A DNA stretch of 63,610 nt from an uncultured bacterium (GTDB lineage Bacteria > Methylomirabilota > Methylomirabilia > Rokubacteriales > CSP1-6), in the NCBI GenBank assembly GCA_964428805.1, contig CAYRZF010000002.1, positions 1 to 63,610 on the forward strand, given 5' to 3'. The notes under the pieces are model-generated. The model ran no database searches and was not told where the DNA came from. It saw nothing but the letters and a program-made list of their open reading frames with translations. Below, piece after piece: positions 26,592 through 53,801 of this stretch. The translations under genes and the position numbers were made by a program. The stretch's first letter is position 1; each line of letters starts with the position of its first letter.

Positions 26592-27485
26592 ATGGATGTG
26601 AGACAGCTGGAAATCTTCGTCAGGGTGGCGGAGCTGGGCTCCTTCTCCAAGGCCGCCGGGGCGCTCTTCCTGACCCAGCCGACCGTGTCGGAGCGCATCC
26701 GTGGGCTGGAGGAGGAGCTCGGGATCCGCCTGCTCGACCGCCTCGGGCGCGGCGCGGTCCCGACGAGAGCCGGGCAGTTGCTTCTCGGTTACGCCCAGCG
26801 AATCCTCGAGCTTCACCGGGAGGCGCGCCAGGCCCTCGATCGGTTCCAGGGGCGCATGAGCGGGGAGCTGGTGGTGGGCGCCAGCACGATCCCCGGCGAG
26901 TATGTGCTCCCGGCGCTGATCGGGCGCTTCAAGGAAAAGTACCCGGACATCGCGATCTCGCTCCTCATCGGGGATAGCCAGGGGGTGGTGGACTGGGTCC
27001 TTGAGGGACGGGTGGAGCTGGGTGTGGTGGGGGCACAGATCAACCACCGGGCCCTCGACTATCGCGAACTGATGCCGGACGAGCTCGTGGTGGTGGTGTC
27101 CGCCGGCCACCCCTGGCACGGGAAGAAAAGCACGACCCTTGAAGAAGTCCGAGCGGAACCGCTGATCGTGAGGGAGCGGGGGTCGGGTTCGCGCCACACG
27201 CTCGAGCGGGCTCTCGCCGAGGTGGGGCTCGATCTGGGCGCCTTTCGTGTGGTCGGGGAGATGGGCTCGACGCAGGCGATCAAGCAGGCGGTCAAGGCTG
27301 GGGTCGGGATTTCATTGATCTCCAAGCGGGCCGTGGCGGAGGAGTGCCAGCACGGGATTCTCTACTGCGTGAAGGTGAAGGACCTCCGCTTCAGTCGCGC
27401 GTTCTATCTCGTCGTCAACACCACCCGCACCCGATCGCCGTTGGCCGAGGCCTTTCTGGCATTTCTTCTGGCCGAGTCCCCGTAG
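26592..27485 (+). CDS. LysR family transcriptional regulator located directly upstream of selD
   Basis: 297 aa. wHTH FVRVAELGSFSKAAGALFLTQPTVSERIRGLEEELG plus an effector domain. Confidence 0.9.
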   Translation: MDVRQLEIFVRVAELGSFSKAAGALFLTQPTVSERIRGLEEELGIRLLDRLGRGAVPTRAGQLLLGYAQRILELHREARQALDRFQGRMSGELVVGASTIPGEYVLPALIGRFKEKYPDIAISLLIGDSQGVVDWVLEGRVELGVVGAQINHRALDYRELMPDELVVVVSAGHPWHGKKSTTLEEVRAEPLIVRERGSGSRHTLERALAEVGLDLGAFRVVGEMGSTQAIKQAVKAGVGISLISKRAVAEECQHGILYCVKVKDLRFSRAFYLVVNTTRTRSPLAEAFLAFLLAESP

Positions 27486-27564: not shown

Positions 27565-28644
27565 GTGGCTGACGCGAAGCTGACCGACCCGGCCTCCGGC
27601 AAGCAGATTCGACTGACCAGCTATGCCGCCTGTGCCGGTTGAGCCTCAAAGATGGGGCCGGGCGAGCTCCACGACGTGCTGAGCAGCCTCAAACGCCAGA
27701 CGCACCCCGATCTCCTGGTGGGTCTGGCGAAGAGTGACGACGCCGCCGTCTATCGCGTCACGGACGAGATCGCCATCGTGGAGACCGTGGATTTCTTCCC
27801 TCCCATCGTGGACGACCCGTATACCTACGGAGCGATCGCGGCGGCCAACTCCATGTCGGACGTCTACGCCATGGGCGGGCAGGTGCTCTTCGCCCTCAAC
27901 GTGGCCGGCTTCCCGCGCGAATTCCCCAAAGAGGTCATCGCCGAGATCTTTCGCGGGGGCGCCGAGAAGGTCGCCGAAGGGGGCGGTGTGGTGGCGGGGG
28001 GGCACACTGTGGTGGACGCTGAGCCGAAGTACGGTCTCTGCGTCACCGGGCGCGTTCACCCGGGAAAGATCTTCCTCAAAGGTGGCCTCCGGGCCGGGGA
28101 CCGGTTGTTCCTGTCCAAGCCGTTGGGGACGGGGGCCATCGCCACCGCCGCCAAGGAGGACGCGTGCGCTCCCGAGGTGCTCCAGGGGGCTGTGCAGAGC
28201 ATGCTGAGGCTGAACCGCGTGGCCGCGGAGGTCGCTCAGGAGCTGGAGGTTCGCGGGGCGACCGACATCACCGGCTTTGGCCTGCTGGGCCATGCGGCCG
28301 AGATGGTCGAGGCTTCCGGGGCGGGGATCCTGATCCGCGCTTCGAAACTTCCGCTGTTGGAGGGCGCGCTCCCCCTGGCAGAGAAAGGTCACCTGAGCGG
28401 CGGCATGAAGCGAAACCGCCGGCACCTCGAGTCAACCCTCGGGGCCAAGGGACAACTCAAGATTGACGCGTCGCTCCCCGCCGCCCTGACGAGCCTGCTC
28501 TTCGAGTCTGAGACCTCGGGCGGGCTTCTCTTCGCCGTTCCCCCCGATCGCGCCGGGCTCGTGATCGAAGGCTTCAAGAAGCGTGGCGAGCCCTGCTGGG
28601 AGATCGGCGAGGTGACCACGGAGCCGACTATCCGCATCGTCTAG
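27565..28644 (+). CDS. selD: selenide, water dikinase (selenophosphate synthetase), selenocysteine-containing; UGA at 27640-27642 read as Sec
   Basis: The track ORF (27652-28644) carries the AIR-synthase-like SelD body. The same frame upstream reads GTG27565-ADAKLTDPASGKQIRLTSYAACAG-TGA-ASK-M27652. GGAGG lies 9 nt before the GTG, and the next upstream stop is at 27556. Confidence 0.8.
27661..27688 (+). promoter_or_regulatory. candidate bacterial SECIS stem-loop of selD
   Basis: GGC/GA/GCUCCAC-GAC-GUG/CU/GAGC/A/GCC begins 19 nt after the UGA. Folded by eye only. Confidence 0.3.
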
Positions 28645-28811
28645 TAAGCGGCCCAACTAACTCCAGTAGCTCCGCGCCCAAACCGTTCCGATCGAGGTTT
28701 TCTATTCCCGCTGCCGCGTTCCATCGGGGATACCGATTTGTGTTCTCGGCGAATCTCTATACGATGAAGGGGCGTCTCAACAGCGAGCTCAACTTCGACT
28801 TGGGGGACCCA

Positions 28812-29672
28812 ATGCGCAGACTCATAGGGATTTTACTGCTCACGCTGCTCGGCATCGCCCCTGTCGCCCAGGCGGGGGACGTCCCGGAGGTCCTTAGGGT
28901 CTCGGCGATCCCCGACGAGAACCCCAACGAGCTGCTTCGGATCTACACGCCGTTCGCCGAGTACCTGGCGAAGCAACTCCACATGAAGGTGAAGTTCACG
29001 CCGGTGGTGGACTACCCCGCAACGGTGGAAGGACTCGCGGCGAAGAAGCTGGACCTGGTGTGGTACGGCGGGTTCACCTCCGTGCAAGCCGTGAGGCGGA
29101 CCAACGGAACGGCTCGACGCCTGGTGCTCCGGCAGGAGGACGCCGAGTTCAAGTCGGTGTTCGTCGCCCGGCCGGGCTCCGGGATCAACTCCCTCGCCGA
29201 TCTCAAAGGAAAAACGTTCTCCTTCGGGTCGGTCTCGTCCACCTCCGGCCACCTCATGCCCCGCTCCTTCCTCCTCAAGGCGGGCCTCAACCCCGAGCGG
29301 GACTTCAAACAGCTCGCCTACTCTGGGGCCCACGACGCCACGGCGCTGTGGGTGGAGTCGGGCAAGGTGGACGCCGGTGCCCTGAACTTCCTCGTCTGGG
29401 ACAAGCTCGTGCAGACAAAGAAAGTCGATCTCGCGAAGGTTAACGTCTTCTGGACCACGCCGCCCTACGTGGATTACGTCTGGACGGCGCGGGGCGACCT
29501 GGACAAGGGGCTCCAGGAGAAAATCACCGCCGCATTTCTGAAGCTCGATTACCAGAACCCCGAGCACAAGAAACTCCTCGATCTGCATCGAACCAAGAGG
29601 TACATCGCGGCCACCGACGAGGACTGGAAGGGGATCGAGGAGGCGGCGGTCGCCGCGGGCCTCCTCAAGTAG
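28812..29672 (+). CDS. PhnD-family ABC transporter substrate-binding protein (phosphonate/oxyanion type; selD-linked)
   Basis: ATG 28812 gives signal peptide MRRLIGILLLTLLGIAPVAQA. Motifs: LRVSAIPDENP, LDLVWYGGFTSVQA, FSFGSVSSTSGHLMPR, YSGAHDATA. Confidence 0.8.
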   Translation: MRRLIGILLLTLLGIAPVAQAGDVPEVLRVSAIPDENPNELLRIYTPFAEYLAKQLHMKVKFTPVVDYPATVEGLAAKKLDLVWYGGFTSVQAVRRTNGTARRLVLRQEDAEFKSVFVARPGSGINSLADLKGKTFSFGSVSSTSGHLMPRSFLLKAGLNPERDFKQLAYSGAHDATALWVESGKVDAGALNFLVWDKLVQTKKVDLAKVNVFWTTPPYVDYVWTARGDLDKGLQEKITAAFLKLDYQNPEHKKLLDLHRTKRYIAATDEDWKGIEEAAVAAGLLK

Positions 29673-36051: not shown

Positions 36052-36071
36052 GGCGCAGGGGGGGCCCTCTC

Positions 36072-37520: not shown

Positions 37521-37525
37521 GGCCG

Positions 37526-38416
37526 GTGGCCGCGGCGCGGGCGCAGGACTTCTTCACCCGCGAGTTCCTGACCCAGCTGGAGCGGCTTGCCCTGGCCTCC
37601 AGGCGGACCTTCCGGGGCCGGGTCAAGGGGGAGCGCAAGAGCCCTCACCGCGGGAGCAGCGTGGAGTTCGTGGACTACCGCCCGTACGGGGTGGGGGACG
37701 ACCTCCGCTACGTGGACTGGAACATCTTCGGCCGCCTCGATCGGCTCTACGTGAAGCTTTTCGTCGACGAAGAAGACCTCTGCCTGCACCTGCTGCTGGA
37801 CGCCTCAGCCTCGATGGACTACGGGGAGCCCACGAAGCTTCAGTACGGAGCCCGGCTGGCTGCGGCCCTCGGCTTCGTGGCGCTCGTGAATCATGAGCGC
37901 GTGGGGGTCGGCATCTTGAGGGAACGGGTCACGGAGGGGTGGTCGTCGGCCCGCGGGCGAGCCCAGGTTCTCCCGCTCCTGGGCTTCCTGGCGAAGCTGC
38001 GCGCGGCGGGCGCCACGGGGCTGAGCGACGGCCTTGCCAGCTATGCCCGGACGTCTCGGGACCCCGGACTTGCGGTTCTGATTTCCGACCTTTTGGATCC
38101 GGGCGGATACGAAGCGGGGCTCCGGGCCCTTCAGGAACGACGCTTCGATGTCCACGTGATTCATCTGTTGTCGCCGGAAGAGATGAACCCCTCGTTCACC
38201 GGGGACCTTCGCCTGAAGGATTCCGAAACCGGGGAGACCCGGGAGCTCACGTTCGACGGTGAAGCGTCTCGGAACTACCGCCGCCGGCTTCACGCGTTTC
38301 TCGATGGGGCCGAGGCGTTCTGCCGTTCCCGCGAGATCAGTTATCACCGTGTGACCACCGACATCCCGCTGGACGGGTTCGTGCTGCGACAGCTCAAGGG
38401 ACTCCTGCTCGTATGA
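37526..38416 (+). CDS. DUF58 (vWA-like) protein, MoxR partner
   Basis: GSSVEFVDYRPYGVGDDLRYVDWN, LLLDASASMDYG. Confidence 0.85.
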   Translation: MAAARAQDFFTREFLTQLERLALASRRTFRGRVKGERKSPHRGSSVEFVDYRPYGVGDDLRYVDWNIFGRLDRLYVKLFVDEEDLCLHLLLDASASMDYGEPTKLQYGARLAAALGFVALVNHERVGVGILRERVTEGWSSARGRAQVLPLLGFLAKLRAAGATGLSDGLASYARTSRDPGLAVLISDLLDPGGYEAGLRALQERRFDVHVIHLLSPEEMNPSFTGDLRLKDSETGETRELTFDGEASRNYRRRLHAFLDGAEAFCRSREISYHRVTTDIPLDGFVLRQLKGLLLV

Positions 38417-41400
38417 GCTTCCTCTCCCCGCTGGCCTTCCTGCTCCTGGGCCTGGCCGTTCCGCTCCTGCTCCTGTACTTCCTCAAGGTACGGCGGCACG
38501 AGCGGCGCGTCCCCAGCCTCCTCCTTTGGGATCCTGCGCTCCGAGACCGCGAAGCCTCGGACTTTTTTCAGCGCCTCCAACGCGATCCGCTGCTGCTCCT
38601 GCAGCTCCTGGCGCTTCTGGCCTTGACGGTGGCGCTGGCGCGGCCCGTCGTAACGGTGGAGGGCCGGGGGGCTCAGCGGACAGTCCTGATTCTGGACATC
38701 TCGGCCTCCATGAAGGCCACCGATGTTCTCCCCTCGCGCTTTGCCGCGGCCCAGCGGGAGGCGCTGGCGTTCCTCGAGCGGCTCCCCTCCGGCGCCGAGG
38801 TGATGCTGATCGAGGCGGGAATCCAGCCTCGCGTCCTGGTCCCCTTCTCCCGTGATCGGCAGCGGCTCACCGCCGCCCTGGGAGCCCTCGAGGCACGCGA
38901 CCTTCCCAATCGGTTGAATGAAGCCCTCCGCACGGCCCGGGCCCTGACCGCTCAAGATCCCCGCGCCGGCATTCGCATCTTCACCGACGGTGCCCATCCG
39001 ACCGCGGTCGGAGATGGCGGCGGTGACCCGCGCGTCCACTGGCTGGGAGTCGGGCGGCGGGGCCGGAATGTCGCGATCACCAATCTGGCGCTGCGAAAGA
39101 CGTTCTTCGGCGCGTTTGGGTATCAGGCGTTTGTCTCGGTGGTCAACTTCTCCGACGAACCTCAGTCGTTCACCTTCACGGTGGACTTGGACGATCGGCC
39201 GATCGCGGAGCAATCCCTCACCCTGGACCCACACGTGCGTCGATCGGTGATGCTTCCGTTCAGCCACCAGGGCGCTGGTGTCGTGCGGGTCCGCCTGAAC
39301 ATCGCCGACGACCTCGGCGCCGACAACGTGGCGTACGCCATCATCCCCCCGCCGCGCGAGATGCGGGTGCTGCTGGTGAGTCCCGGCAACCTATTCCTTG
39401 AGAAAGTCCTGAGGGCCGATGCCCAAGTCAAGCTCGAGGTCCGCACGGCGGAGGCCTATCAAGGGGGGATGGAGTCCTTCGACGTCGTGGTGCTGGACAG
39501 CGTGAGCCCGGCTAGGATTGGGGCCGGCCGGTACGTCCTCATCAACACGATCCCGCCCGATGTCCCGCTGGAGAATCTGGGCCGGGCCGCGCAGCCGGTC
39601 ATCATGGACTGGGACCGGTCGCACCCGATCATGCGATACGTGGACTTTTCCAAGGTGGTTATCGAGGAAGCGCTCCGGGTTCGTCCGTTGGCCGCGGGTA
39701 AGACCCTGGTGGAGGCGATCGGTGGGCCGCTGATCTACGGTTTGGAGGAACCACGGCGCAAAGCGATCTTTTTCGGGTTCGACCTGTTCAAGACGGATCT
39801 TCCCCTTCGTGTGGCCTTTCCGCTCATCCTCTCCAACGGGCTCCGCTGGCTTCACCCGGCCGGCCTCGATCTGACGAGCTTCCAGCTTCAGGCGGGACAG
39901 CCGATTCTCCTCCCGGTGGAGCATGGCGTCACCGCTGCCAGGGTGATCACCCCGTCGGGGCGGAGCGTGGAGGCCCAGGTCACGCGCGGGCTTGCGAGCT
40001 TCGCCGACACCGGTCAGGTGGGAGTGTACACCGTGGTGACCTCCCGCGGAGAGGCCCGGGTCGCCGTAAACCTCACGAGTGCCGAGGAGTCGGACATCGC
40101 CCCTCGGCCGATCCCGACGCGGTCGGAGGCCCCTTCATCCGACGGCATGACCGTGCCGCTTCAGCGCGAACTCTGGGGGTTGTTCGCCCTGCTGGCCGCG
40201 GTCCTCCTCCTGGTCGAGGGGTTTCTCTATTGGCGTCGCCAAACCGCGGGGAGGCTCGTGCTTCCACGCGGCCCCGGAGATCGGTGGGCTCTCGGGCTCC
40301 GCTGCGTTCTGGTGGTCTTCCTGTTGACGGCGCTTCTGCGTCCTGTGGTGCCGCGCTGGGTGGACAGGCTGAACGTGGTGTTTCTCCTCGACGTGTCCGA
40401 CAGCGTCACCCTGGCTGCCCGGGAAAACGCATACCGCTTCGCGGTCCAGGCCCTGACCGGGATGCAGGAAGGCGATCAGGTGGGGCTCCTCGTGTTTGGC
40501 GAGGCGGCGGCGGTGGCCCAGCCGTTGAGCGCCAAGCCGAAGCTGGACCGCCCCCAGGTCGACGTGCGGGGGCGGGGGACCGACCTCGCCCAGGCCATCC
40601 AACTGGCGCTGGCGACGCTGCCGGCGCGCCACGCCAACCGTCTCGTCCTGCTCACGGACGGTCGCCAGAACAAGGGTAGCGCCTTGGCGGTTGCGCAGGC
40701 GGCCAAGGACGCAGGAGCCGACATTCACTACGCCCCCACGTCGTTGACCTTCGCCCAGGAGGTGGTGGTCGAGGCCATGCTCCTTCCGCAGGAGGTGAAG
40801 TTCGGGGAGCCGTTTGACGCGAAGGTCGTGGCCTGGAGCCAGCAAGACACCCAGGGACGGCTCTCGCTCTTTCGCAACGGGGAGTTCCTGGGGTCTCAGG
40901 TGGTGCGGCTTTCCGCCGGCAAGAACGTTTTCACCTATCGCCAGTCGCTGGAGCGGAACGGGATTCACGTCTACCAGGCGGCCGTCGAGGCCGACGGGGA
41001 CACGATCGAGGAGAATAACCGGGCCGTCGGGACCGTGGTAGTCCGAGGCCGGCCCCATGTCCTGCTGGCGGAGAAGGAGCGGGCGCATGCGCAGGCCTTG
41101 AGCGCGGCGCTCCGTGCCCAGCACATCGACGTGGAGGTGATGGAGCCGGAGCGGATTCCCAGGGACCTGGCGGGGCTCCAGAAATACGATGGCTTGATCC
41201 TTTCGAACGTCTCCTCACTCAAGCTCACGAAGAAACAGATGGAGAACATCCGCGACTACGTGCGGGACTACGGCGGCGGGCTCATCATGGTGGGCGGAGA
41301 GGAAAGCTTCGGTCTGGGGGGCTACTACCGCACGCCGATCGAGGAAGCACTGCCCGTCACCATGGAGGTGAAGCAGCGGCTCGAGATCCCCAGCCTCGCT

Positions 41401-42810
41401 GTCGTTCTGTCCATCGATCGGTCGGGCTCCATGGCCATGTCCACCGATGAGAGGGTCACGAAGCTCGACATCGCGAAGGAAGCGGCGCACCTGGTGGTGG
41501 ACCTCCTGGACGAACGAAACGAGGTGGGGGTGATGAGCTGGGACACCGAGTTCGTTTGGGACGTCTCCATGCAGGCCGCACGGGACAAGAATGCCATCCA
41601 CCGCGCCGTCGCCACGATCAAAGCGGGCGGTGGCACAGACGGGTATCCGGCGCTGAAGGACGCGTACCGGGCCCTCTTCGACCGTCCGGCCCTGCTCAAG
41701 CATGTCATCTTCATGTCTGACGGCCAGATGACGCGCGGGGACTTTGCGGGCCTCATTCGCCGCATGGCGAAGGACAAGATCACCGTATCATCCGTCGCCA
41801 TCGGCAAAGATGCCGACGCTCAACTGATGTTGGACATCGCCAAGTGGGGGCGTGGCCGGTTCTACTACACCGAGGACACGCAGACCATTCCTCGGATCTT
41901 TACGCTCGAGACCCAGCTGGCCTCCAAGGCCTCGCTGATCGAACATCCCTTCAAGCCGGCCGTGTCCGGTGCGAGTCACGAAGTGCTCCAGGACATCGAC
42001 TGGAAGAATGCCCCTCCGCTGGGTGGGTACGTGGCTACCACGCTCAAAGGCACCGCGGAGCAGCTGCTCATGACCCACCAGGAAGATCCGCTCCTGGCCA
42101 CGTGGCGGTACGGTTTGGGACGGACCGCGGCATTCACCTCGGATGCCAAGGGAAAGTGGGCCGTCCTCTGGCTTCGTTGGGGTGCCTTTAACAAGTTCTG
42201 GGGGCAACTCACGCGCTGGTCGCTTCGCACGGGGAGCCGGAGTGATACCGTGGCGACCGTGGAACGGCGTGATGGAGTGGGGGAGGTGACGGTCGAGGCC
42301 GTCGATCCCAAGGGTGAATTCATCAACTTCCTGGAGACTCAGGTCGGCGTCGTGGCTCCGGACAAGCAGCGGTCGGTGGTCGATCTGGAGCAGGTGGCCC
42401 CGGGCCGGTACCGGGGCCGGTTCCCCGCTCCCGAGGAGGGTATCTACCTGGTGGGAATGGCCCAGCGCCGGGGCGAGAAGATGGTTGGCTCGCAGCTGGC
42501 GGGGTTGGTGGTACCGTATGCTAAGGAGTTCAGGGATCTCGGTGTGGACGAAACGCTGCTGCGAGAGTTGGCGGAGCTCACCGGCGGGGGGGCTGTCGCG
42601 CAGCCGAAGGATGTGTTCCTTAAGGCCCGACGGCGCTCGCGGCTCTCGGTTGAGCTCTGGCCCTGGCTTGTCGGCTGCGCGGCGCTGTTGCTGCTGCCGG
42701 AGGTCGCGCTGAGACGGATCGGCCCCAGACTGTTCACGCGCCTCCGCGGGCGGTTTCGGCACCCGCCGGGCGGCGGCGGTAACCCCCCGGATGCGAGGAT
42801 GTCACCGTGA
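38413..42810 (+). CDS. giant BatA-N / triple vWA / GATase1-like membrane protein
   Basis: 1465 aa. The BatA N-terminal double-TM signature (LAFLLLGLAVPLLLLYFLKVRR..PSLLLW). Three vWA MIDAS-type starts (LILDISASM, FLLDVSDSV, LSIDRSGSM). ThuA/GATase-like segments (YDGLILSNV, GGGLIMVGG). Internal and C-terminal TM helices. Confidence 0.8.
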   Translation: MSFLSPLAFLLLGLAVPLLLLYFLKVRRHERRVPSLLLWDPALRDREASDFFQRLQRDPLLLLQLLALLALTVALARPVVTVEGRGAQRTVLILDISASMKATDVLPSRFAAAQREALAFLERLPSGAEVMLIEAGIQPRVLVPFSRDRQRLTAALGALEARDLPNRLNEALRTARALTAQDPRAGIRIFTDGAHPTAVGDGGGDPRVHWLGVGRRGRNVAITNLALRKTFFGAFGYQAFVSVVNFSDEPQSFTFTVDLDDRPIAEQSLTLDPHVRRSVMLPFSHQGAGVVRVRLNIADDLGADNVAYAIIPPPREMRVLLVSPGNLFLEKVLRADAQVKLEVRTAEAYQGGMESFDVVVLDSVSPARIGAGRYVLINTIPPDVPLENLGRAAQPVIMDWDRSHPIMRYVDFSKVVIEEALRVRPLAAGKTLVEAIGGPLIYGLEEPRRKAIFFGFDLFKTDLPLRVAFPLILSNGLRWLHPAGLDLTSFQLQAGQPILLPVEHGVTAARVITPSGRSVEAQVTRGLASFADTGQVGVYTVVTSRGEARVAVNLTSAEESDIAPRPIPTRSEAPSSDGMTVPLQRELWGLFALLAAVLLLVEGFLYWRRQTAGRLVLPRGPGDRWALGLRCVLVVFLLTALLRPVVPRWVDRLNVVFLLDVSDSVTLAARENAYRFAVQALTGMQEGDQVGLLVFGEAAAVAQPLSAKPKLDRPQVDVRGRGTDLAQAIQLALATLPARHANRLVLLTDGRQNKGSALAVAQAAKDAGADIHYAPTSLTFAQEVVVEAMLLPQEVKFGEPFDAKVVAWSQQDTQGRLSLFRNGEFLGSQVVRLSAGKNVFTYRQSLERNGIHVYQAAVEADGDTIEENNRAVGTVVVRGRPHVLLAEKERAHAQALSAALRAQHIDVEVMEPERIPRDLAGLQKYDGLILSNVSSLKLTKKQMENIRDYVRDYGGGLIMVGGEESFGLGGYYRTPIEEALPVTMEVKQRLEIPSLAVVLSIDRSGSMAMSTDERVTKLDIAKEAAHLVVDLLDERNEVGVMSWDTEFVWDVSMQAARDKNAIHRAVATIKAGGGTDGYPALKDAYRALFDRPALLKHVIFMSDGQMTRGDFAGLIRRMAKDKITVSSVAIGKDADAQLMLDIAKWGRGRFYYTEDTQTIPRIFTLETQLASKASLIEHPFKPAVSGASHEVLQDIDWKNAPPLGGYVATTLKGTAEQLLMTHQEDPLLATWRYGLGRTAAFTSDAKGKWAVLWLRWGAFNKFWGQLTRWSLRTGSRSDTVATVERRDGVGEVTVEAVDPKGEFINFLETQVGVVAPDKQRSVVDLEQVAPGRYRGRFPAPEEGIYLVGMAQRRGEKMVGSQLAGLVVPYAKEFRDLGVDETLLRELAELTGGGAVAQPKDVFLKARRRSRLSVELWPWLVGCAALLLLPEVALRRIGPRLFTRLRGRFRHPPGGGGNPPDARMSP

Positions 42811-44174
42811 AACGCCGCCAGGCGCGCGGTCCTCGGATTTCCGCGCGGGTATCTGTGCTGCTTCTGTGTGTGGCGTTGCTGAATCCTTCCCCAGCTCGCG
42901 CGGCGCCGGCGGGCCGGTCGCTTCTCATTCTCCCGTTCCAGCCGGTTGAAGTTGAACGGGAGGAGCAGTGGCTGGGGGAGGGAGTTGCCACTGTCCTGTC
43001 GCTTGCCCTCGTGAACCACCCTGCATTCATCGTCGTGGACCCCGCCCGGGTCAAGAGACTGGGTCAGCCCGAGGCGTCGGGAGAGCAAGTCGTCCTCGAC
43101 ACCGCGCGAAGTCTGCGGGCGGACCTAGTCTTCTATGGCGAGATCAGGCGCGACGCGGGCGACCTTCGGATCATTCCCCGCTACCTGGAGCTCGGGGCGG
43201 GAGGCGGAGAAGGGCGTGCTGTGGAGCCGGTCACGGTTCCGGAGGGGCGAATCCTGGAAAGCGTGAAGGGATTGCCGCTGGCCTACGTCCGGGCGCTTCG
43301 CCTTCCCGTGAGCGAGGCCGAGGTCGCGAAGATCGAAAAGGCCGCCATGCCCACCAAATCGATTCGCGCGTTCGAGACCTTCGTCAAGGGCCACGGCGCC
43401 GCACTCCTGGGGACGCAAGCCGGCAACGAGGCCGCGGCGGACCTGCTCGGGAAGGCCGTGGAGCTGGACTCGACGTTCGTCGCGGCACAATACACGCTGG
43501 GTCTGGTGCATGTGGCGCTGGGAAACCGCTGGAAGGCAGCCGCCCAGTTTCGCGCCTCAGTCCCGCTCGACCCCACATTCCCCGAGCCGTACAAGGCCCT
43601 CGGTGATCTGTTCCTCACGCATCCCCGCCGGATGTTCGATCAGGCCGTGGAGGCTTACCAGAAGGCGCTGGAGCTCCGACCCTTCTATGCTGACGCGTAC
43701 GTCGGGCTCGGGGACGCTCGGGCCGCCAAGGGGGAGGTGGACGAAGCCATCGCAAGTTACCAGAAGGCCGTCCGACACAATCCTGGGAACCCCAAGGTCC
43801 ACATGAGCCTGGGGAAAATCTACTATGCGGAGAAAGGACTCTACTACGAATCCGTGACTTCGTACAAGAAGGCCATCGAACTCGATCGCCAATTCCTGGA
43901 AGCGCGCATGGGGCTGGGCGAAGTCTACGAGGACAAGGGGCTCTACGAGGACGCCATCCGTGAGTACCGGCAAGTGGTGGGACTCGACCCGCAGCATACC
44001 GGGGCACTCTACAACCTCGCTCTCGTTTACGAGAAAGTGGATCCCCGGGAGGCCATCGCCCAGTGGGAGCGCTACATCCAGGTCGCCGTGCTGCTCCCGT
44101 CGGAAAAGGACTGGGTGGACGTGGCACGCCAGCACTTGAAAAAGCTCAAGACGCAGGTGGAAGGAGGCCGCTGA
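42807..44174 (+). CDS. TPR-repeat protein (BatC-like position), exported
   Basis: 455 aa with a signal-like N-terminus and at least 6 TPR units (AYQKALELRPFYADAYVGLG, ASYQKAVRHNPGNPKVHMSLG, and others). Overlaps the upstream gene by 4 nt. Confidence 0.8.
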   Translation: MKRRQARGPRISARVSVLLLCVALLNPSPARAAPAGRSLLILPFQPVEVEREEQWLGEGVATVLSLALVNHPAFIVVDPARVKRLGQPEASGEQVVLDTARSLRADLVFYGEIRRDAGDLRIIPRYLELGAGGGEGRAVEPVTVPEGRILESVKGLPLAYVRALRLPVSEAEVAKIEKAAMPTKSIRAFETFVKGHGAALLGTQAGNEAAADLLGKAVELDSTFVAAQYTLGLVHVALGNRWKAAAQFRASVPLDPTFPEPYKALGDLFLTHPRRMFDQAVEAYQKALELRPFYADAYVGLGDARAAKGEVDEAIASYQKAVRHNPGNPKVHMSLGKIYYAEKGLYYESVTSYKKAIELDRQFLEARMGLGEVYEDKGLYEDAIREYRQVVGLDPQHTGALYNLALVYEKVDPREAIAQWERYIQVAVLLPSEKDWVDVARQHLKKLKTQVEGGR

Positions 44175-44176
44175 CG

Positions 44177-44416
44177 CTAAATTCCCAAAAGCCGCTGGAG
44201 CCGCCCTTTGTCGAAGCCCACGACCACTTCTTCGTCAACGAGGATCACCGGAACGGCCATCTGCCCGGTCCGTCGCACCAGCTCCGCTCGCGCTTCATGA
44301 TCCTCCAGCACGTTGACGTCCTTGAATGCGACTCCCTTGGACGAAAGAAACTCTTTCGTCGCTCGGCAGGGACCTCACGTGGGGGTCGAGAACACCGTCA
44401 CCCGGGGCTCTGTCAT
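44177..44416 (-). CDS. glutaredoxin-like selenoprotein (UxxC redox motif); TGA at 44377-44375 read as Sec
   Basis: Not in the ORF track. Minus-strand ATG 44416 (GGAGG 8 nt upstream) reads MTEPRVTVFSTPT-U-GPCRATKEFLSSKGVAFKDVNVLEDHEARAELVRRTGQMAVPVILVDEEVVVGFDKGRLQRLLGI-TAG. This is a full-length Grx/NrdH-like fold with Sec at the first Cys position. Confidence 0.75.
44340..44360 (-). promoter_or_regulatory. candidate SECIS hairpin of the Grx-like selenoprotein
   Basis: RNA GACGAAAGA-GUU-UCUUUCGUC is a perfect 9-bp stem starting 14 nt after the UGA. A flanking CCCU/AGGG pair could extend it. Confidence 0.5.
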
Positions 44417-44481
44417 GCGGCTCACCTCCTTCGACTTATCAATTGTCCCATATTCATCTCGAGCCAGCAAAGCCGACGATC

Positions 44482-44510
44482 TTGACAAGGAAAGACGCCG
44501 TCGCTATTGT
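44482..44510 (+). promoter_or_regulatory. sigma70-like promoter of the GalT-like gene
   Basis: TTGACA (44482-44487), 17-nt spacer, TATTGT (44505-44510). GAGAGGAGGG Shine-Dalgarno lies 8 nt before TTG 44546. Confidence 0.4.
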
Positions 44511-44545
44511 TTCGTGTGTTTATTGACGAGAGGAGGGTCCGGTTC

Positions 44546-45529
44546 TTGAGCGAGTTGAGGAAGGATCCAACCCGCGCACAGTGGGTACTCGTGCGACCCC
44601 GTAGCGCTGGCAGGCCGGAGGACAACGAGTGTCCTTTTTGTCCCGGCAACGAGGCGAGCACGCCCCCGGAGATCGCGGCCTATCGAAAGGAAGGGTCTGC
44701 TCCCAACACTCCGGGCTGGCAGGTGCGGGTCATTCCGGAAGCCGACCCATACTTCCAGGTGGAGTGGGATCTGGTCCGCGAGGGAGCGGGCATGTACGAC
44801 AAGATCACTCCACGTGGGGCCAGCGAGTTGATCATCGAGAGCCCGAGCCACGAGGACACGTTGGCCACGATGGGCGCGGACCAGCTCGAGCGAGTGCTCT
44901 GGATGTACCGGGATCGGTTGGAGGATCTGAAGCAGGACGTGAAGATCCGCGATATCCTCATCACCCGCCGTCATCGCAAACCCGGGTCGCGTTTGAGTCA
45001 TCCGTATTCGCGGGTGACGGCGATTCCCGTGATCTTCGACGATCTCCGCCGGGGGCTCCGGGAGTCGCGCGAGTACTATCAGTACAAGCGCCGCTGCCTC
45101 TTCTGCGACATCCTCCGCCAGGAGCTGGCCGACGGCGACCGCGTGGTGCGAATGACGCCGTATTTCTTGCTGATGATTCCCTACGCGGCCCGCACGCCAT
45201 TCGAGACCCGGGTCTTACCCCGTCAACATGCGTGCGCCTACGAGACGCTGTCGCCCGAAGCCGCCGCGGATCTCGCCCGCCTGCTCGCCGGATATTTCGG
45301 GGCGCTGGCGACCGGGCTGGGGGATCCGTCATTCGAGTTGAGCCTCCAGACCGCCCCGAATCTCCACTCTAAGATCCTGCAGGGAGAGTGGGCGACGGTC
45401 CAGGACGATTACCACTGGCATCTCGAGATCGTCATCCATCCCGAGAGAGCCAACCGGGTGGGGGGAATCTTCATCAACGACCTGCCCCCGGAAGAAGCTG
45501 CCCGCCAGCTCCGCGCGGCCTGGCGGTAG
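44546..45529 (+). CDS. galactose-1-phosphate uridylyltransferase-like (GalT/HIT branch) protein with an altered active-site motif
   Basis: TTG 44546 gives LSELRKDPTRAQWVLV. Motifs CPFCPGNE and GASELIIESPSHED are present. HPYSR replaces the usual HPH(G/S)Q. The second half carries CLFC and YHWHLEIVIHP. Confidence 0.75.
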   Translation: MSELRKDPTRAQWVLVRPRSAGRPEDNECPFCPGNEASTPPEIAAYRKEGSAPNTPGWQVRVIPEADPYFQVEWDLVREGAGMYDKITPRGASELIIESPSHEDTLATMGADQLERVLWMYRDRLEDLKQDVKIRDILITRRHRKPGSRLSHPYSRVTAIPVIFDDLRRGLRESREYYQYKRRCLFCDILRQELADGDRVVRMTPYFLLMIPYAARTPFETRVLPRQHACAYETLSPEAAADLARLLAGYFGALATGLGDPSFELSLQTAPNLHSKILQGEWATVQDDYHWHLEIVIHPERANRVGGIFINDLPPEEAARQLRAAWR

Positions 45530-46907: not shown

Positions 46908-47342
46908 ATGCTTCGCTTTACCAAACGCGCCGATTACGGGCTGATGGCAATCAATTATATCGCCATGCAGCGGGAGTACGGGGCTATTAGCGCAAAGCGG
47001 GTCGCCGAGGAGTTCGGTATCCCCCCGGAGCTGCTGGCGAAGATCCTCCAGCGCTTGGCAAAGAAGGGGCTCATCGCCAGCCACAACGGCCCCAAAGGAG
47101 GCTATCTGCTGGCACGCTTGCCCGAGGAGATCACGGTAGGGCAGGTGGTGCGGGCTCTCGAGGGACCCATCAATATTGTGAGTTGCCTTGAGGACCTGGA
47201 CTGTCCCCAGTTCGAGCGCTGCAACTTGCGTCGCCCGGTCCAGAAGATCCAAGCCAGCATCAGCTACCTGCTCGACACGATGACCCTGGCTGAGCTGAAT
47301 CGCGAGACCGTCCCAATCGCTGAGCTCACGACGATCAACTAG
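46908..47342 (+). CDS. iscR: Rrf2-family Fe-S cluster regulator IscR
   Basis: MLRFTKRADYGLMAINYIA wHTH. Three-Cys ligand segment CLEDLDCPQFERC. First gene of the isc operon. Confidence 0.85.
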   Translation: MLRFTKRADYGLMAINYIAMQREYGAISAKRVAEEFGIPPELLAKILQRLAKKGLIASHNGPKGGYLLARLPEEITVGQVVRALEGPINIVSCLEDLDCPQFERCNLRRPVQKIQASISYLLDTMTLAELNRETVPIAELTTIN

Positions 47343-47353
47343 GAGAGCCGATC

Positions 47354-48580
47354 ATGGCGTTGAAGTTTCCGATCTTCATGGACAGCCACTCGACGACCCC
47401 GGTGGACCCGCGGGTGCTAGAGGCTATGATTCCGTTCTTTACGGAGAAGTTCGGTCACCCCGGAAGCCGAAACCATCCCTTCGGGTGGGAGGCCGAGGCC
47501 GCCGCGGATAAGTCCCGCGAACAGGTGGCCAAGCTGATCGGTGCCCGGGATCCGAAGGAGATTGTCTTCACCTCCGGGGGCACCGAGTCGATCAACCTGG
47601 CCATCAAGGGCGTGGCCGAGATGTACCGGGAAAAGGGCAACCACATTGTGACCACAGCCATCGAGCAGAGAGCCGGCCTCGACGTGTGCAAGCACCTCGA
47701 GCGCCAGGGGCATCAGGTCACCTACCTCCCCGTGGCGGCGGACGGCCTGATGGACGTCGAGGCGATCCGAAAGGCCATCACCGACAAGACGATCCTCATC
47801 TCCGTGATGTTCGCCAACAACGAAATCGGCACGATCCAGCCGATCGCCGAGATCGGCAAGCTGGCCAAGGAGAAAGGGATCATCTTCCACTGCGACGGGA
47901 CTCAGGCCGTGGGAAAGGTGCCCGTGGATGTGGAAGCCATGGGGATCGACCTGCTGTCTTGCACCGCCCACATGGTCTACGGCCCCAAGGGAGTCGGCGC
48001 GCTCTACGTCCGCCGCAAGAACCCCCGGGTCCGGATCGCCCCGCTGTTCGATGGCGGCGGCCACGAGCGCGGAATGCGGTCGGGAACAGTGCCGGTGCCC
48101 CTGACGGTCGGCTTCGGCAAGGCGGCTGAGATCTGTCAGGAGGTAATGCCCGAGGAGTCAGCCCGGCTCAAGGCTCTCAGGGACAAGCTTCAGGACAAGA
48201 TCCTCTCCTCGATGGACGAAGTATACCTGAACGGGCATCCGGAGAAGCGGCTCCCCCATAACCTGAACATCTCCTTCGCCTACGTGGAAGGGGAGTCCGT
48301 CCTCATGGGGCTGAACAAGGAGGTGGCCATCTCCTCGGGCTCGGCCTGCACGTCGTCAACCCTGGAGCCCTCTTATGTGATCGCGGCCCTGGGGGTCGGG
48401 TCTGAACTGGCCCACTCCTCTATCCGGTTCGGCTTGCATCGGTTCAACACGCAGGAGGAAGTGGATTACGTCGGCAATCGGATGATCGAGGTCGTCAGTC
48501 GGCTTCGGGAAATGTCCCCCCTCTACGAGTTGGCCAGGGAGGGCGTGGACATCAAGTCGATCCAGTGGAAGGCCGAGTAG
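47354..48580 (+). CDS. iscS: cysteine desulfurase IscS
   Basis: 408 aa: FTSGGTESINLAIKG, GPKGVGALYVRR, SSGSACTSSTLEPSYV. Confidence 0.93.
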   Translation: MALKFPIFMDSHSTTPVDPRVLEAMIPFFTEKFGHPGSRNHPFGWEAEAAADKSREQVAKLIGARDPKEIVFTSGGTESINLAIKGVAEMYREKGNHIVTTAIEQRAGLDVCKHLERQGHQVTYLPVAADGLMDVEAIRKAITDKTILISVMFANNEIGTIQPIAEIGKLAKEKGIIFHCDGTQAVGKVPVDVEAMGIDLLSCTAHMVYGPKGVGALYVRRKNPRVRIAPLFDGGGHERGMRSGTVPVPLTVGFGKAAEICQEVMPEESARLKALRDKLQDKILSSMDEVYLNGHPEKRLPHNLNISFAYVEGESVLMGLNKEVAISSGSACTSSTLEPSYVIAALGVGSELAHSSIRFGLHRFNTQEEVDYVGNRMIEVVSRLREMSPLYELAREGVDIKSIQWKAE

Positions 48581-48616
48581 CAACGCCAGCGGGCGATAAA
48601 GGGAGGAATCAGAGAC

Positions 48617-49033
48617 ATGGCGTATAGCGAGAAGGTGATTGATCACTACAACAACCCGCGCAACGTGGGGTCCTTCTCCAAGGAGATGCCCGGCGTGGGG
48701 ACAGGGCTCGTGGGGGCGCCGGAATGCGGCGACGTCATGAAGCTCCAGATCAAGGTGAATCTGGACACTGGCGTCATCGAGGACGCCAAGTTCAAGACCT
48801 TCGGCTGCGGCAGCGCCATCGCGTCTTCCAGCCTGGCCACCGAGTGGCTGAAGGGGAAGTCCGTGGACGACGCCATGAAGATCAAGAACACGGACATCGT
48901 CAACGAGCTGAAGCTGCCTCCGGTGAAGATCCACTGCTCGGTGCTGGCCGAGGACGCCATCAAGGCCGCCCTGGCGGACTATCGGGAGAAGTGGGGCAAG
49001 CGGGAAGCCGCGGCCGGCGCTCACGCGTCATAA
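48617..49033 (+). CDS. iscU: Fe-S cluster scaffold IscU
   Basis: GAPECGDVMKL, FKTFGCGSAIASSS, LPPVKIHCSVLAEDAIKAA. Confidence 0.93.
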   Translation: MAYSEKVIDHYNNPRNVGSFSKEMPGVGTGLVGAPECGDVMKLQIKVNLDTGVIEDAKFKTFGCGSAIASSSLATEWLKGKSVDDAMKIKNTDIVNELKLPPVKIHCSVLAEDAIKAALADYREKWGKREAAAGAHAS

Positions 49034-49069
49034 GGACTGAAGGCACTCGCGACAAAGGAGGCTTTTCAT

Positions 49070-49396
49070 ATGGCGGTGAATCTTAGCGAAGAGGCGCTGA
49101 AGCAGGTCAAGCAGCTCATGGCTGCCCAGAACCTCGAAAACGTCTATCTCCGGATGGGGGTCAAGGGGGGCGGCTGTTCGGGACTCTCCTACTCCGTGGA
49201 GTTCGACAACGAGGTCGGGCCGCACGACAAGACCTTTGACGTCGACGGGGTCAAGGTGGTCTGCGACGCCAAGAGCTTCCTGTACCTGAACGGGACGACC
49301 CTGGACTACGTGACCCAGGGGCTCACCGGCGGATTCACCTTTGTGAACCCCAACGCCAAATCGAGCTGCGGCTGCGGGACGTCCTTCTCGGCGTAG
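49070..49396 (+). CDS. iscA: A-type Fe-S carrier (IscA/ErpA)
   Basis: 108 aa. GGGCSGLSY and C-terminal CGCGTSF. Confidence 0.9.
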   Translation: MAVNLSEEALKQVKQLMAAQNLENVYLRMGVKGGGCSGLSYSVEFDNEVGPHDKTFDVDGVKVVCDAKSFLYLNGTTLDYVTQGLTGGFTFVNPNAKSSCGCGTSFSA

Positions 49397-49475
49397 CGAC
49401 GCGATCTCGGACAGGGCGGGGGTCCGGAGGTGAGACGGGGGTCAGGATAGCGAGACCGTCGCGCAAGGAGAGAGC

Positions 49476-49508
49476 AGAAACGGGCCCGGGCGGGCCTGTT
49501 TCTATTTT
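49476..49508 (+). terminator. intrinsic terminator/attenuator-like hairpin between iscA and hscB
   Basis: AGAAACGGGCC (49476-49486) pairs with GGCCTGTTTCT (49493-49503, one G-U pair), loop CGGGCG, then ATTTT. The hscB Shine-Dalgarno follows immediately. Confidence 0.5.
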
Positions 49509-49517
49509 GGAGAGAGG

Positions 49518-50126
49518 ATGTCGGGCAGGTCGGACTACTTCAAGGTTTTCGAGTTGCCCCGGAAGCTCGGGATCGACGGGGATGAGCTCCAGCGCAGGTT
49601 TTACGAGCTCTCGCGACGGGTGCACCCCGACTTCTTCCAGACGGGGACGCCCGCTGAACAGGCTTGGAGCCTGGAGCGATCGGCGCTCATCAACCGAGCG
49701 TACCGGACCCTCCGCGACCTCGTTTCCCGGGTGGAATACCTGATCCAGCTTGAGGAAGGGCGGGAGACGAAAGAGGGAGCCACCGGCATTAAGCCCCAGG
49801 CACCGACTGACCTCCTGGAAGAGATGCTCGAGATTCAGGAAGCGCTTCAGGAGGCCAAAGCGGGGGGGCTGGATGGGCCAAGGCGTCAGCACCTCAGGGA
49901 CGTGCAGGCTCGGCTCACGGAGCGGCGGAAGTCCGAGGAAGCCTCGCTCCTGGATCTTGCCCGCGGGTGGGACGCCGTGGTGGACGGGGGCGGTGAGCGC
50001 AAGGCACTCTTGGACCGGATGAAGCAGGCCTTGGCCGCGAGAGCCTATCTCGATACTGTGATCAACGATCTGGGCGACGCGCTCGGAGAGGAAACGCAGA
50101 GAGATGTCTCGCATCGTCGGCATTGA
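49518..50126 (+). CDS. hscB: co-chaperone HscB (J-domain)
   Basis: YFKVFELPRKLGID..YELSRRVHPDFF contains the HPD motif. 202 aa. Confidence 0.85.
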   Translation: MSGRSDYFKVFELPRKLGIDGDELQRRFYELSRRVHPDFFQTGTPAEQAWSLERSALINRAYRTLRDLVSRVEYLIQLEEGRETKEGATGIKPQAPTDLLEEMLEIQEALQEAKAGGLDGPRRQHLRDVQARLTERRKSEEASLLDLARGWDAVVDGGGERKALLDRMKQALAARAYLDTVINDLGDALGEETQRDVSHRRH

Positions 50127-51936
50127 TCTCGGCACCACCAACAGCCTCGTGGCGTACATGGAGGGGGACTTCCCCAAGGTAATTCCCGACGCGGAGGGAC
50201 GCGTCCTCCTGCCGTCCGTGGTGGCCTTCACCCCCGACGGCGTCCTGGTGGGCGATGCGGCCAGGCGGCAGCTCGTCAGGAACCCGACCCGGACCATCTA
50301 CTCGATCAAGCGGTTCATGGGGAAGGGGTACGAAGATGTCAAAGAGGAGCTGCGGTATTTCCCCTTTCGGGTCCTGCCGAGTCGCGAGATCGTGCGCATC
50401 AGGGTCGGAGAGCGAGAGGTCACGCCGCCTGAGGTCTCGGCGCTGATCCTGAGAGCCCTGAAGGAGCGAGCCGAGGCCCACCTGGGCGAGCCCGTCACGA
50501 AGGCGGTCATCACGATCCCCGCGTACTTCAACGACAGCCAGCGTCAGGCCACCAAGGACGCGGGGCGGATCGCCGGCTTGGAGGTTCTGAGAATCGTCAA
50601 CGAGCCGACCGCCGCGTCACTCGCCTACGGGCTTCACCGTCTCACGCAGGGGACCATCGCGGTCTACGACCTGGGCGGCGGGACCTTCGACATTTCGATC
50701 CTCAAGGTGAAGGATGGGATCTTCGAGGTGCTGGCCACGAACGGCAACACGCATCTCGGCGGCGATGACTTCGACCGGGCGCTGGTGGACTGGCTGCTGG
50801 CCGATATCGAGGCGCGTCACGGGAGAGACCTCAGCGGCGACTTGGAGGCCATGCAGGAGCTCCGGCTCGGGGCCGAGGCCGCCAAATGTCGCCTGTCCTA
50901 CGAGGACCGGACGGTGTTCACGATTCCGTTTCCCCAGCATGGATTCACCTATCGGCGGGAGATCGCGCGCTCGGATGTGGAAGCCTTGATCGAGCCGCTG
51001 GTCCAGCAGACGCTCGGCCCGTGCCGCCTGGCCCTGGCCGACTCCCGGCTGGTCGCCGAGCAAATTGATGAGATCGTCCTGGTTGGCGGCTCCACCCGGA
51101 TCCCGCTTGTGAAGCGGCGCGTTCAGGAGCTGTTCGGCAAGTCGCCGCACAGCCAGCTGAACCCCGACGAGGTCGTGGCCCTGGGGGCGGCCGTGCAGGC
51201 TCACATCCTGGCCGGCGGGATCACCAACATGCTCCTGCTTGACGTCACGCCCCTCTCCCTCGGGATCGAGACTGTGGGGGGCGTCATGAGCGTGCTGATT
51301 CCGCGGAACACCACAATCCCGACCAGCGCCAAGGAGCTGTTCACCACCTCGGTGGACGGGCAGGCGGTCGTGGACATGCACGTGCTCCAGGGCGAGCGGG
51401 AGCTGGCCAACGACAACCGGTCTCTTGCCCGCTTTGAGCTCCGCGGCATTGACCCCATGCCCGCCGGGATGCCGCGGATCGAGGTGACGTTCCTCATCGA
51501 TGCCAACGGGATCCTCCAGGTCCACGCCAAGGAACTCAGGACCGAAAAGGCCGCGTCCATCGAAGTGAAGCCCTCCTACGGGCTCACCGATGCTGAAGTG
51601 GAACGGATGATCGAGGAATCCTTCATTCACGCCGAAGAAGATGTGGCGTCGCGGCTCCTCATCGAGGCTCGCAACGAGGCGGACACGGTCGTCCGCGCCA
51701 CGGAGCGGGCGCTGGGGCAGGGGAGCCACTTGATCGCCGAAGACGAGGCGGCCCGGATCAAAGAGGCGCTGGCGGCACTGAAGGGCGTCAGCGACGGAAA
51801 TGACCGGGACGCCATTCGTGAGGCAACAGAACGGCTCAACCAGGCCACGCTTCACTTGGCCGAGATCCTGATGGACTCCGCCCTCAAGGAGGCCCTGACC
51901 TCGAAGCGGGTGACGGAGGCTCTGGAGAAGAAATAG
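50104..51936 (+). CDS. hscA: Fe-S cluster chaperone HscA (Hsp70 family)
   Basis: IVGIDLGTTNSLVA, DLGGGTFDISIL, LVGGSTRIPLV. 610 aa. Confidence 0.92.
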   Translation: MSRIVGIDLGTTNSLVAYMEGDFPKVIPDAEGRVLLPSVVAFTPDGVLVGDAARRQLVRNPTRTIYSIKRFMGKGYEDVKEELRYFPFRVLPSREIVRIRVGEREVTPPEVSALILRALKERAEAHLGEPVTKAVITIPAYFNDSQRQATKDAGRIAGLEVLRIVNEPTAASLAYGLHRLTQGTIAVYDLGGGTFDISILKVKDGIFEVLATNGNTHLGGDDFDRALVDWLLADIEARHGRDLSGDLEAMQELRLGAEAAKCRLSYEDRTVFTIPFPQHGFTYRREIARSDVEALIEPLVQQTLGPCRLALADSRLVAEQIDEIVLVGGSTRIPLVKRRVQELFGKSPHSQLNPDEVVALGAAVQAHILAGGITNMLLLDVTPLSLGIETVGGVMSVLIPRNTTIPTSAKELFTTSVDGQAVVDMHVLQGERELANDNRSLARFELRGIDPMPAGMPRIEVTFLIDANGILQVHAKELRTEKAASIEVKPSYGLTDAEVERMIEESFIHAEEDVASRLLIEARNEADTVVRATERALGQGSHLIAEDEAARIKEALAALKGVSDGNDRDAIREATERLNQATLHLAEILMDSALKEALTSKRVTEALEKK

Positions 51937-51938
51937 GA

Positions 51939-52292
51939 ATGACGTATAAGGTGACGTTTCTCCCGCAGAACATCACGGTGGAGGTGGACCCGGAGAAGTT
52001 CCCCCTCCAGGAGGACGGCCTGCCGGGTTCCGTCCTGGACATCGCGCTGGGGAACAACATCGCCCTGCAGCACAACTGCGGCGGCAAGTGCGCCTGCACC
52101 ACCTGCCACGTCATCGTGAAGGAGGGGGCGGAGAACCTCTCCAAGATGGAGGAGGACGAGGAGGACCGGCTCGACACTGCCGAGGGACTCACCCTCCATT
52201 CGCGGTTGGGCTGCCAAGCGGTCGTGAGCGGCGACGTCGTCGTGGAAATCCCGCTGTCCGGGCGGGGAGGTCACACGCCTCCCAGCCATTGA
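51939..52292 (+). CDS. fdx: ISC-type [2Fe-2S] ferredoxin
   Basis: NCGGKCACTTCHV plus a distal Cys in SRLGCQ (adrenodoxin-type spacing). Confidence 0.88.
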   Translation: MTYKVTFLPQNITVEVDPEKFPLQEDGLPGSVLDIALGNNIALQHNCGGKCACTTCHVIVKEGAENLSKMEEDEEDRLDTAEGLTLHSRLGCQAVVSGDVVVEIPLSGRGGHTPPSH

Positions 52293-52347
52293 GGAGCCCG
52301 GACGCCGTCGGAAGGGCGCAAGGACCACCACGAGGTGAGGAGCTCAT

Positions 52348-52554: not shown

Positions 52555-52596
52555 GAGACCCACCTTCGGTGGGTACCCCGACCCCCTCCGGCAGGG

Positions 52597-53793: not shown

Positions 53794-53801
53794 GAGCTGA
53801 T

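Follow-up and report, generated by a model that had tools for sequence, protein, structure and literature searches.

A probable selenocysteine-containing glutaredoxin gene with a SECIS-type hairpin in a Rokubacteriales contig

Glutaredoxins carrying selenocysteine (Sec) in the active site have been described in several bacteria. Members are listed in Geobacter sulfurreducens (WP_010943784.1), Alkaliphilus, and Moorella (Zhang et al. 2006; PMC1794560, PMC13188914), and a table of prokaryotic selenoprotein families in a 2026 review (PMC13188914) includes Grx (PF00462, UxxC), citing Kim et al. 2011. The structurally known member is glutaredoxin-1 (cGrx1) of Clostridium (Alkaliphilus) oremlandii OhILAs, a "native selenoprotein" with a U/C-P-x-C motif, whose catalytic Sec was swapped to Cys for the crystals (PDB 7C10, 7C12, and 7C13) and which is the proposed reductant of a selenoprotein MsrA (PMC7642778). 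Here, I describe a 240-nucleotide space between a TPR gene and a GalT-like gene in a contig of an uncultured Rokubacteriales bacterium (CAYRZF010000002.1; the whole stretch of 63,610 nucleotides that was analysed is called the window). Judging from the sequence, this gap very probably holds a gene for a Sec-containing glutaredoxin with a functional Sec insertion sequence (SECIS) element, as an earlier note on this DNA had proposed.

On the minus strand, positions 44416-44177 form a frame of 79 codons (13+1+65) that runs from ATG to TAG and is broken solely by a TGA at 44377-44375. The translation is MTEPRVTVFSTPT (13 sense codons), the TGA, and then GPCRATKEFLSS...RLLGI (65 sense codons). The features of the locus are as follows.

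44177..44416, minus strand: predicted coding sequence of a glutaredoxin-fold selenoprotein, 79 residues (sequence and translation; PF00462; TIGR02196; match of residues 5-79 to 7C10)
44425..44429, minus strand: Shine-Dalgarno-like GGAGG, 8 nucleotides 5′ of the ATG (read from the sequence; AGGAGG spans 44430-44425)
44416-44414, minus strand: start codon ATG (read from the sequence)
44375..44377, minus strand: in-frame UGA, codon 14 (U14), at the first Cys of CxxC (TGA kept in at least 14 distinct relatives; TGT or TGC in the Cys forms)
44366..44368, minus strand: TGC codon of the resolving Cys17 in the motif U-G-P-C (TGC or TGT in all aligned Sec forms)
44340..44360, minus strand: putative SECIS upper stem-loop GACGAAAGA-GUU-UCUUUCGUC, a perfect 9-bp stem with a GUU loop (-9.8 kcal/mol; pairs 97% kept across 15 sequences)
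44333..44372, minus strand: putative extended SECIS with a 5-bp lower helix, 44372-44368 pairing with 44337-44333 (minimum-free-energy fold; 89% paired, three of the five pairs changed on both sides)
44179-44177, minus strand: stop codon TAG (read from the sequence)

The ATG, the GGAGG, the TGA, the TAG, and the 21-nucleotide hairpin all lie where the earlier note had placed them. It had also described the gap as lacking an explanatory gene model, and no minus-strand open reading frame (ORF) of at least 60 amino acids covers the space between the TPR gene (42807-44174, plus strand, convergent and 2 nucleotides away) and the GalT-like gene (44507-45529, plus strand, divergent). A plus-strand ORF at 44063-44485 was rejected as a real gene; it is an antisense shadow, because its G+C pattern over the three codon positions (GC1/2/3) is the mirror image of that of the minus-strand frame. 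Since TGA ends 22 of the 39 long ORFs of the window as a normal stop, a reassigned genetic code is excluded.

Profile and structure matches were made with U replaced by C. The whole Pfam Glutaredoxin domain (PF00462) was matched, residues 6-65 falling on profile positions 1-60 of 60 (E=7e-21; 74.7 bits vs a gathering threshold of 22.9). The NCBIfam model TIGR02196 (glutaredoxin-like protein YruB family), whose name is silent on Sec, was matched by a narrow margin (90.4 bits vs a cutoff of 88.55; residues 5-77 on positions 1-73 of 74). The NrdH-redoxins and the UXX-star Grx-like selenoproteins are likewise small glutaredoxin-fold redoxins of about 75-80 residues with a similar C-terminal VGF motif. 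The window protein scores under the cutoffs of the NrdH-redoxin model TIGR02194 (55.9 vs 85.75 bits), of the UXX-star model NF041212 (56.3 vs 66), and of the UXX-star subfamilies (32-38 vs 72-100), and it belongs to neither family.

The best match among solved structures is 7C10 (E=2e-17; 49% identity over 75 residues, residues 5-79 vs 4-77), and the window UGA codon aligns with its Cys13. The fold, the length, a Sec standing first in U-x-x-C, the KEFLS helix start, and the VPV...VVVGFD motifs are common to cGrx1 and the window protein. In contrast, the active-site motif is U-P-H-C in cGrx1 and in the metagenome-assembled genome (MAG) of a Clostridia bacterium, while it is U-G-P-C in the window protein. 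The host of cGrx1 belongs to another phylum, the window genome is GC-rich, and the proposed cGrx1 partner, a Sec-containing MsrA, was not seen in the window. Throughout the Rokubacteria clade, the motif is U-[G/V/A/M/R]-P-C. CGPC is the thioredoxin motif, and the dipeptide within it tunes the redox potential. Thus, the reductant and the substrate of the U-x-P-C clade may differ from those of cGrx1.

As for the Grx selenoprotein family (UxxC) in general, the window gene resembles it in the Pfam domain, the UxxC motif, the single Sec, the existence of Cys homologues, and an intragenic SECIS candidate just 3′ of the UGA; the likeness to the Geobacter and Moorella members is drawn from family descriptions and not from sequence alignment. 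The text of the BSepDB paper contains nothing specific on Grx or Methylomirabilota. The window protein joins, as a new member, a family whose prediction dates back about two decades and for which biochemical and structural characterisation already exists. It was correctly stated before that thiol-oxidoreductase selenoproteins are known in bacteria, the closest solved structure being that of one. These precedents limit the novelty, and no new mechanism is implied. What the locus adds to the glutaredoxin selenoprotein family is a set of Rokubacteria members with U-x-P-C.

Is the UGA kept in the relatives of this gene? A protein search gave 85 relatives (P0001-P0085), and the DNA of selected loci was read upstream for the TGA codon. 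At least 14 distinct Sec forms, from several phyla and with 54-85% identity, carry the TGA at this very codon (L001, L002, L083, L084, L089, L091, L093, L163, L164/L165, L166, L167, L168, L169, and L170), and none of them has any other disruption. They include MAGs of a Rokuibacteriota bacterium (L001, 85% identity), a Methylomirabilota bacterium (L163), a Bryobacteraceae bacterium (L168), and the low-GC Clostridia bacterium (L164/L165, 54% identity), while L081 and L082 have almost the same sequence as the window gene. In the Sec forms, the TGA is preceded by a conserved upstream beta-strand, V.V[FY]S[ST]PT. Other relatives have a Cys codon at the UGA position and read straight through. The closest of them is P0001/L161 (86% identity, TCAPC), and more distant ones are L003, L086-88, L092, and L095. 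The UGA aligns with the TGT or TGC of P0001/L161, L003, L086-88, and L092, as it does with Cys13 of 7C10, and this bears out its placement at the first Cys of CPxC. The UGA is thus aligned with the catalytic Cys, and it is conserved together with the protein sequence on both of its sides.

The hairpin begins 14 nucleotides past the UGA, and the 14-nucleotide spacer plus 9 nucleotides of stem place the loop 23 nucleotides from the UGA. According to published criteria, a bacterial SECIS has a loop of 3-9 nucleotides, an upper stem of 4-16 bp, a UGA-to-loop distance of 16-37 nucleotides, a folding energy of -7.5 kcal/mol or lower, and a G as the first or second loop nucleotide, mostly with G or U next to it (PMC13188914). 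The window hairpin agrees with every one of these, having a 3-nucleotide loop, a 9-bp stem, a distance of 23 nucleotides, and -9.8 kcal/mol for the 21-nucleotide hairpin alone; position and stem length had been judged SECIS-like from the start. Such a structure is rare in the window. With both strands and any frame counted, 5 of the 1640 UGA triplets have a perfectly Watson-Crick-paired stem of 9 bp or more that fits SECIS geometry and has a G at the loop start, and these 5 stand for 3 distinct hairpins. Like the bSECISearch consensus and the Escherichia coli fdhF element, it lies inside the coding sequence directly 3′ of the UGA and has a small loop starting with G-U, its 3-nucleotide loop being the minimum length of the consensus. 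The upper stem has no bulged U of the E. coli fdhF kind.

The stem is encoded in the codons of (A)TKEFLSS: ACG AAA GAG TTT CTT TCG TC. A- or T-ending codons such as these are disfavoured at 80% G+C in third codon positions, and the joint probability of the series under the codon usage of the window is 5e-4. The run AAA GAG TTT CTT TCG hardly varies across all Sec forms, the exceptions being one substitution in L083 (AAG) and one in the Clostridia form (TCT). Synonymous divergence (pS) is 0.15 in the hairpin codons vs 0.50 upstream and 0.52 downstream. The loop G-U-U is invariant in 15 of 15 sequences. Over these sequences, 94.3% of the cells are paired vs at most 65% with slid partners, four pairs have changed on both sides, and values as high as those observed came up in only 0-1 of 500 shuffles. 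One upper-stem pair is A-U in 11 sequences, G.U in two, and G-C in L168. Thus, the hairpin is conserved in relatives, with frozen synonymous sites and compensatory changes.

The Cys forms behave differently from the Sec forms. L161 (L161:466-783; TGT) encodes the same TKEFLSS peptide, whereas its synonymous changes GCG->GCA and TTT->TTC break the basal and the loop-closing pairs. The more distant Cys forms have AAG, TTC, and CTG codons and no such hairpin. This decay or absence of the stem indicates that the nucleotide-level constraint is tied to the TGA. Together, the covariation, the low pS, and the decay in the Cys form reveal that the structure is maintained beyond coding needs. In L161, Sec seems to have been replaced by Cys recently, leaving a "fossil" SECIS that is now decaying; Zhang et al. 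2006 described this phenomenon. The frozen synonymous sites of the Sec forms and the decay in an 86%-identical Cys form constitute a natural experiment on SECIS constraint.

The hairpin is predicted to bind SelB and to direct Sec insertion. The stand-alone minus-strand gene would then encode a 79-residue YruB/Grx1-type thiol/selenol oxidoreductase with Sec as the nucleophile. Translation would start at ATG 44416 and the ribosome would reach UGA14, where the hairpin, with its GUU loop 23 nucleotides past the UGA, may recruit SelB and Sec-tRNA(Sec), as in the established bacterial Sec pathway. Sec would be inserted in place of termination, and the active site would be U14-G-P-C17. If the protein works like cGrx1, the selenolate may attack an oxidised substrate (a disulfide, a sulfenate, or a selenenylsulfide), and Cys17 may resolve the mixed intermediate so that an intramolecular selenenylsulfide with U14 is formed. 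An external reductant, putatively glutathione or a thioredoxin-reductase-type enzyme, would regenerate the protein.

The window also contains a selenium-utilisation cluster (26592-32134, plus strand), which consists of the following genes.

26592..27485, plus strand: selenium-metabolism-associated LysR-family regulator (NF040786, 319.5 bits vs a cutoff of 250)
27565..28644, plus strand: SelD, selenophosphate synthetase, 359 residues, itself Sec-containing (GTG 27565; TGA 27640-27642; family profiles)
28740..29672, plus strand: putative selenate ABC transporter substrate-binding protein (TIGR04553, 337.7 bits vs a cutoff of 250)
29675-30487, plus strand: PhnC-like ATPase, following the selenate-type binding protein gene
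31118-32134, plus strand: PhnE-like permease, following the PhnC-like ATPase gene

The selD gene was found by scanning the window for in-frame TGAs with coding-like flanks; the same scan missed the glutaredoxin gene. The TGA of selD lies in the context RLTSYAACAG-U-ASKMGPGELHDVL (...AACAG-U-ASKMGPGE...). With U replaced by C, SelD matched TIGR00476 (354.6 bits vs a cutoff of 125) and NF002098 (307 vs 299), and both matches span the TGA. Among the SelD relatives, the top 120 have lengths of about 330 amino acids without exception and are truncated just after the TGA, and the named ones are from Candidatus Rokubacteria or Methylomirabilis. For three SelD relatives, the longest contig is of the same size as in glutaredoxin matches (62,007 nucleotides, the size of the L001 contig; 32,823 nucleotides; and 141,216 nucleotides). 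Matching contig sizes alone thus suggest that the Sec forms of the glutaredoxin and SelD are linked in other genomes too.

In the earlier note, the absence of the Sec-decoding machinery from the genome would have told against the gene. SelD, with a Sec-TGA of its own, answers this in part and points to a Sec-decoding host. Since this SelD itself requires Sec, SelA, SelB, and tRNA-Sec would have to exist elsewhere in the genome. Rokubacteria/Methylomirabilota are reported to be rich in selenoproteins, one Methylomirabilota MAG having 63 predicted genes of this kind (PMC13188914); Sec-type hydrogenases have been reported in Methylomirabilota in one further paper. The Sec-containing SelD and the Sec-rich phylum make a complete decoding machinery in the host genome likely. 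The locus is further support for a heavy reliance of Methylomirabilota/Rokubacteria on selenium.

Several points weigh against a functional Sec-glutaredoxin gene. SelA and SelB were not found in NCBIfam and Pfam scans of 40 window ORFs, and ARAGORN detected no tRNA or tRNA-Sec in the 63.6-kb window. Five of the nine hairpin pairs never vary, and the KEFLS peptide is common in the Cys forms too, so that part of the nucleotide conservation reflects protein-level constraint. The z-score of a 61-nucleotide fold is modest (-2.2). There was no relevant Rfam match, either for the whole window at the gathering threshold or for 44150-44450 at E<=10. A promoter and terminator scan yielded no minus-strand promoter-like or terminator-like site for the glutaredoxin gene.

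Could the UGA be read through without selenium? Near-cognate insertion of Trp or Cys, or read-through stimulated by the hairpin, would give a non-selenium protein, and such a reading gains some room from the deduced decoding step and from the failure to find SelA, SelB, and tRNA-Sec in the window. However, the UGA occupies the catalytic Cys position, and where relatives have another codon there, it is one for Cys. The hairpin, down to the G-U of its loop, conforms to the SelB-type SECIS model; the window also encodes a SelD that has a Sec-UGA itself; and the closest characterised homologue is a native selenoprotein. Non-Sec read-through therefore seems very unlikely.

Most of the 85 relatives are annotated with only 43-68 residues, beginning just past the expected stop (MPCR..., VPCR..., MAKEF..., MLED...). 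Among the matches examined, the Rokubacteria/Methylomirabilota, Bryobacteraceae, and mercury resistance (mer)-linked members are found solely in truncated form, entered as "glutaredoxin family protein". If such gene models (P0002-P0085, e.g., those of 61-63 amino acids) were taken at face value, the real protein would start past the TGA and the upstream 13 codons would be an untranslated leader. However, such a product would be missing strand beta-1 and the entire redox motif and could neither fold nor function as a glutaredoxin. The upstream codons, which follow a Shine-Dalgarno sequence and an ATG, change synonymously while the protein sequence is conserved. In addition, the truncated models disagree on where the protein starts, as expected of artefacts. 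Models starting right after an expected stop are what gene callers typically produce when an in-frame TGA makes them cut a gene short, and a genuine short product is even harder to credit than read-through. The full-length reading corrects an annotation gap: in the present search, the glutaredoxin and dozens of its relatives stand in public databases solely as fragments without an active site, and SelD is likewise cut.

Nei-Gojobori counts on 13 GC-rich Sec forms gave a ratio of nonsynonymous to synonymous divergence (pN/pS) of 0.51 in the 8 codons before the TGA vs 0.48 in the 52 codons after the hairpin. These similar values indicate that both sides evolve as coding sequence in one frame. 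A pseudogene, in which a Cys codon would have mutated to TGA beside an incidental hairpin, needs just one base change from TGT or TGC and has a close Cys form in P0001/L161, but it is the least credible alternative and is effectively refuted by the comparative data, namely the same TGA in otherwise undisrupted sequences of several phyla, purifying selection on both sides of it, and nucleotide-level selection on the hairpin in TGA forms only. Even when read-through, the short product, and the pseudogene are pooled, their chance is small, and comparative evidence stands against each.

The Sec-glutaredoxin reading raises the matter of how its SECIS has spread. The SECIS core GAAAGA-GUU-UCUUUC, in the KEFLS codons, is common to the Sec-glutaredoxins of Clostridia, Methylomirabilota, and Acidobacteriota. 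In the Clostridia MAG relative (L164), the core is the same as in the window, while the stem is 6 bp there vs 9 bp here. It is a speculative and rather unlikely proposal that the almost frozen SECIS reflects transfer of the Sec form between phyla or a great age, that the U-x-P-C clade uses a reductant and a substrate other than those of cGrx1, and that the mer-linked Sec-glutaredoxin is a partner in a selenium-based organomercury/Hg(II) module.

A subclade of Sec-glutaredoxins (L168:64-1161 and L169:586-1073) has the motifs STG-U-GGC and SST-U-QSC, and a LysW-like zinc-ribbon gene is next in both loci. Both lie in clusters of the mercury-resistance type: L168 has MerF-like and MerT-like genes, and L169 has a MerB-like gene. 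In L169, a soil metagenome contig (Ga0066905_100035131), the MerB-like gene (L169:1-600) is directly upstream of the Sec-glutaredoxin and has an in-frame TGA in ...KAFDSL-U-TTINFFRSEEHLKAW..., with a SECIS-like hairpin, UUCUUCC-GGUC-GGAAGAA, starting 12 nucleotides past the TGA. The MerB profile match spans this TGA and scores under the cutoff. The TGA position probably corresponds to the catalytic Cys159 of MerB. If true, the L169 locus would hint at selenium-based handling of organomercury or Hg(II) with the Sec-glutaredoxin as a partner.

The Sec-glutaredoxin has no conserved operon partner among the loci compared; the MoxR-DUF58-BatA/VWA-TPR and GalT-like neighbours are retained among close relatives only. 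Thus, its function cannot be deduced from gene context. A Bat (aerotolerance)-like cluster (35002-44174, plus strand), with a MoxR AAA ATPase, a DUF58 protein, a 1465-residue BatA/VWA protein, and a TPR protein, ends 2 nucleotides from the glutaredoxin stop codon, and the same BatA/VWA and TPR pair is also found near the Sec-glutaredoxin in the Methylomirabilota MAG locus L163. An ISC iron-sulfur operon (IscR, IscS, IscU, and HscA) and a second NifS-like cysteine desulfurase (46908-54959, plus strand) start about 2.5 kb from the Sec-glutaredoxin gene.

Around the selenium cluster, a 494-residue ORF lies directly 3′ of it (32297-33781, plus strand) and has weak similarity, far under the cutoffs, to the multiheme cytochrome (seleno)protein ExtKL and UshA-like (seleno)protein families. 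A second regulator resembling LysR_Sec_metab (10543-11472, minus strand) scores 170.7 bits, under the cutoff of 250. Three other TGAs were rejected as Sec codons. The candidate at 9530 (minus strand) lies in low-complexity, non-protein-like sequence, and those at 31299 and 12584 are ordinary stops with extensions of just 13 codons each.

Elsewhere in the window, an amidase gene (14540-16033, minus strand) covers about three quarters of its family profile and turns into Arg/Ser/Pro-rich nonsense past about residue 365; the likely cause is a frameshift, which would mark either an assembly error or a pseudogene. A perfect 13-bp hairpin, CGCCGUGGAUGCG-CAUCG-CAUCCACGGCG, was found at about 8290-8325 (plus-strand reading) inside an acyl-CoA dehydrogenase gene (7040-9283, minus strand). 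At about 21240-21280 (plus strand), just 5′ of an indolepyruvate oxidoreductase gene, a GC-rich hairpin of 9 bp precedes a run of U residues (GGCAAAAGGGGC...GCCCCUUUUUUCUU) and looks like an intrinsic terminator.

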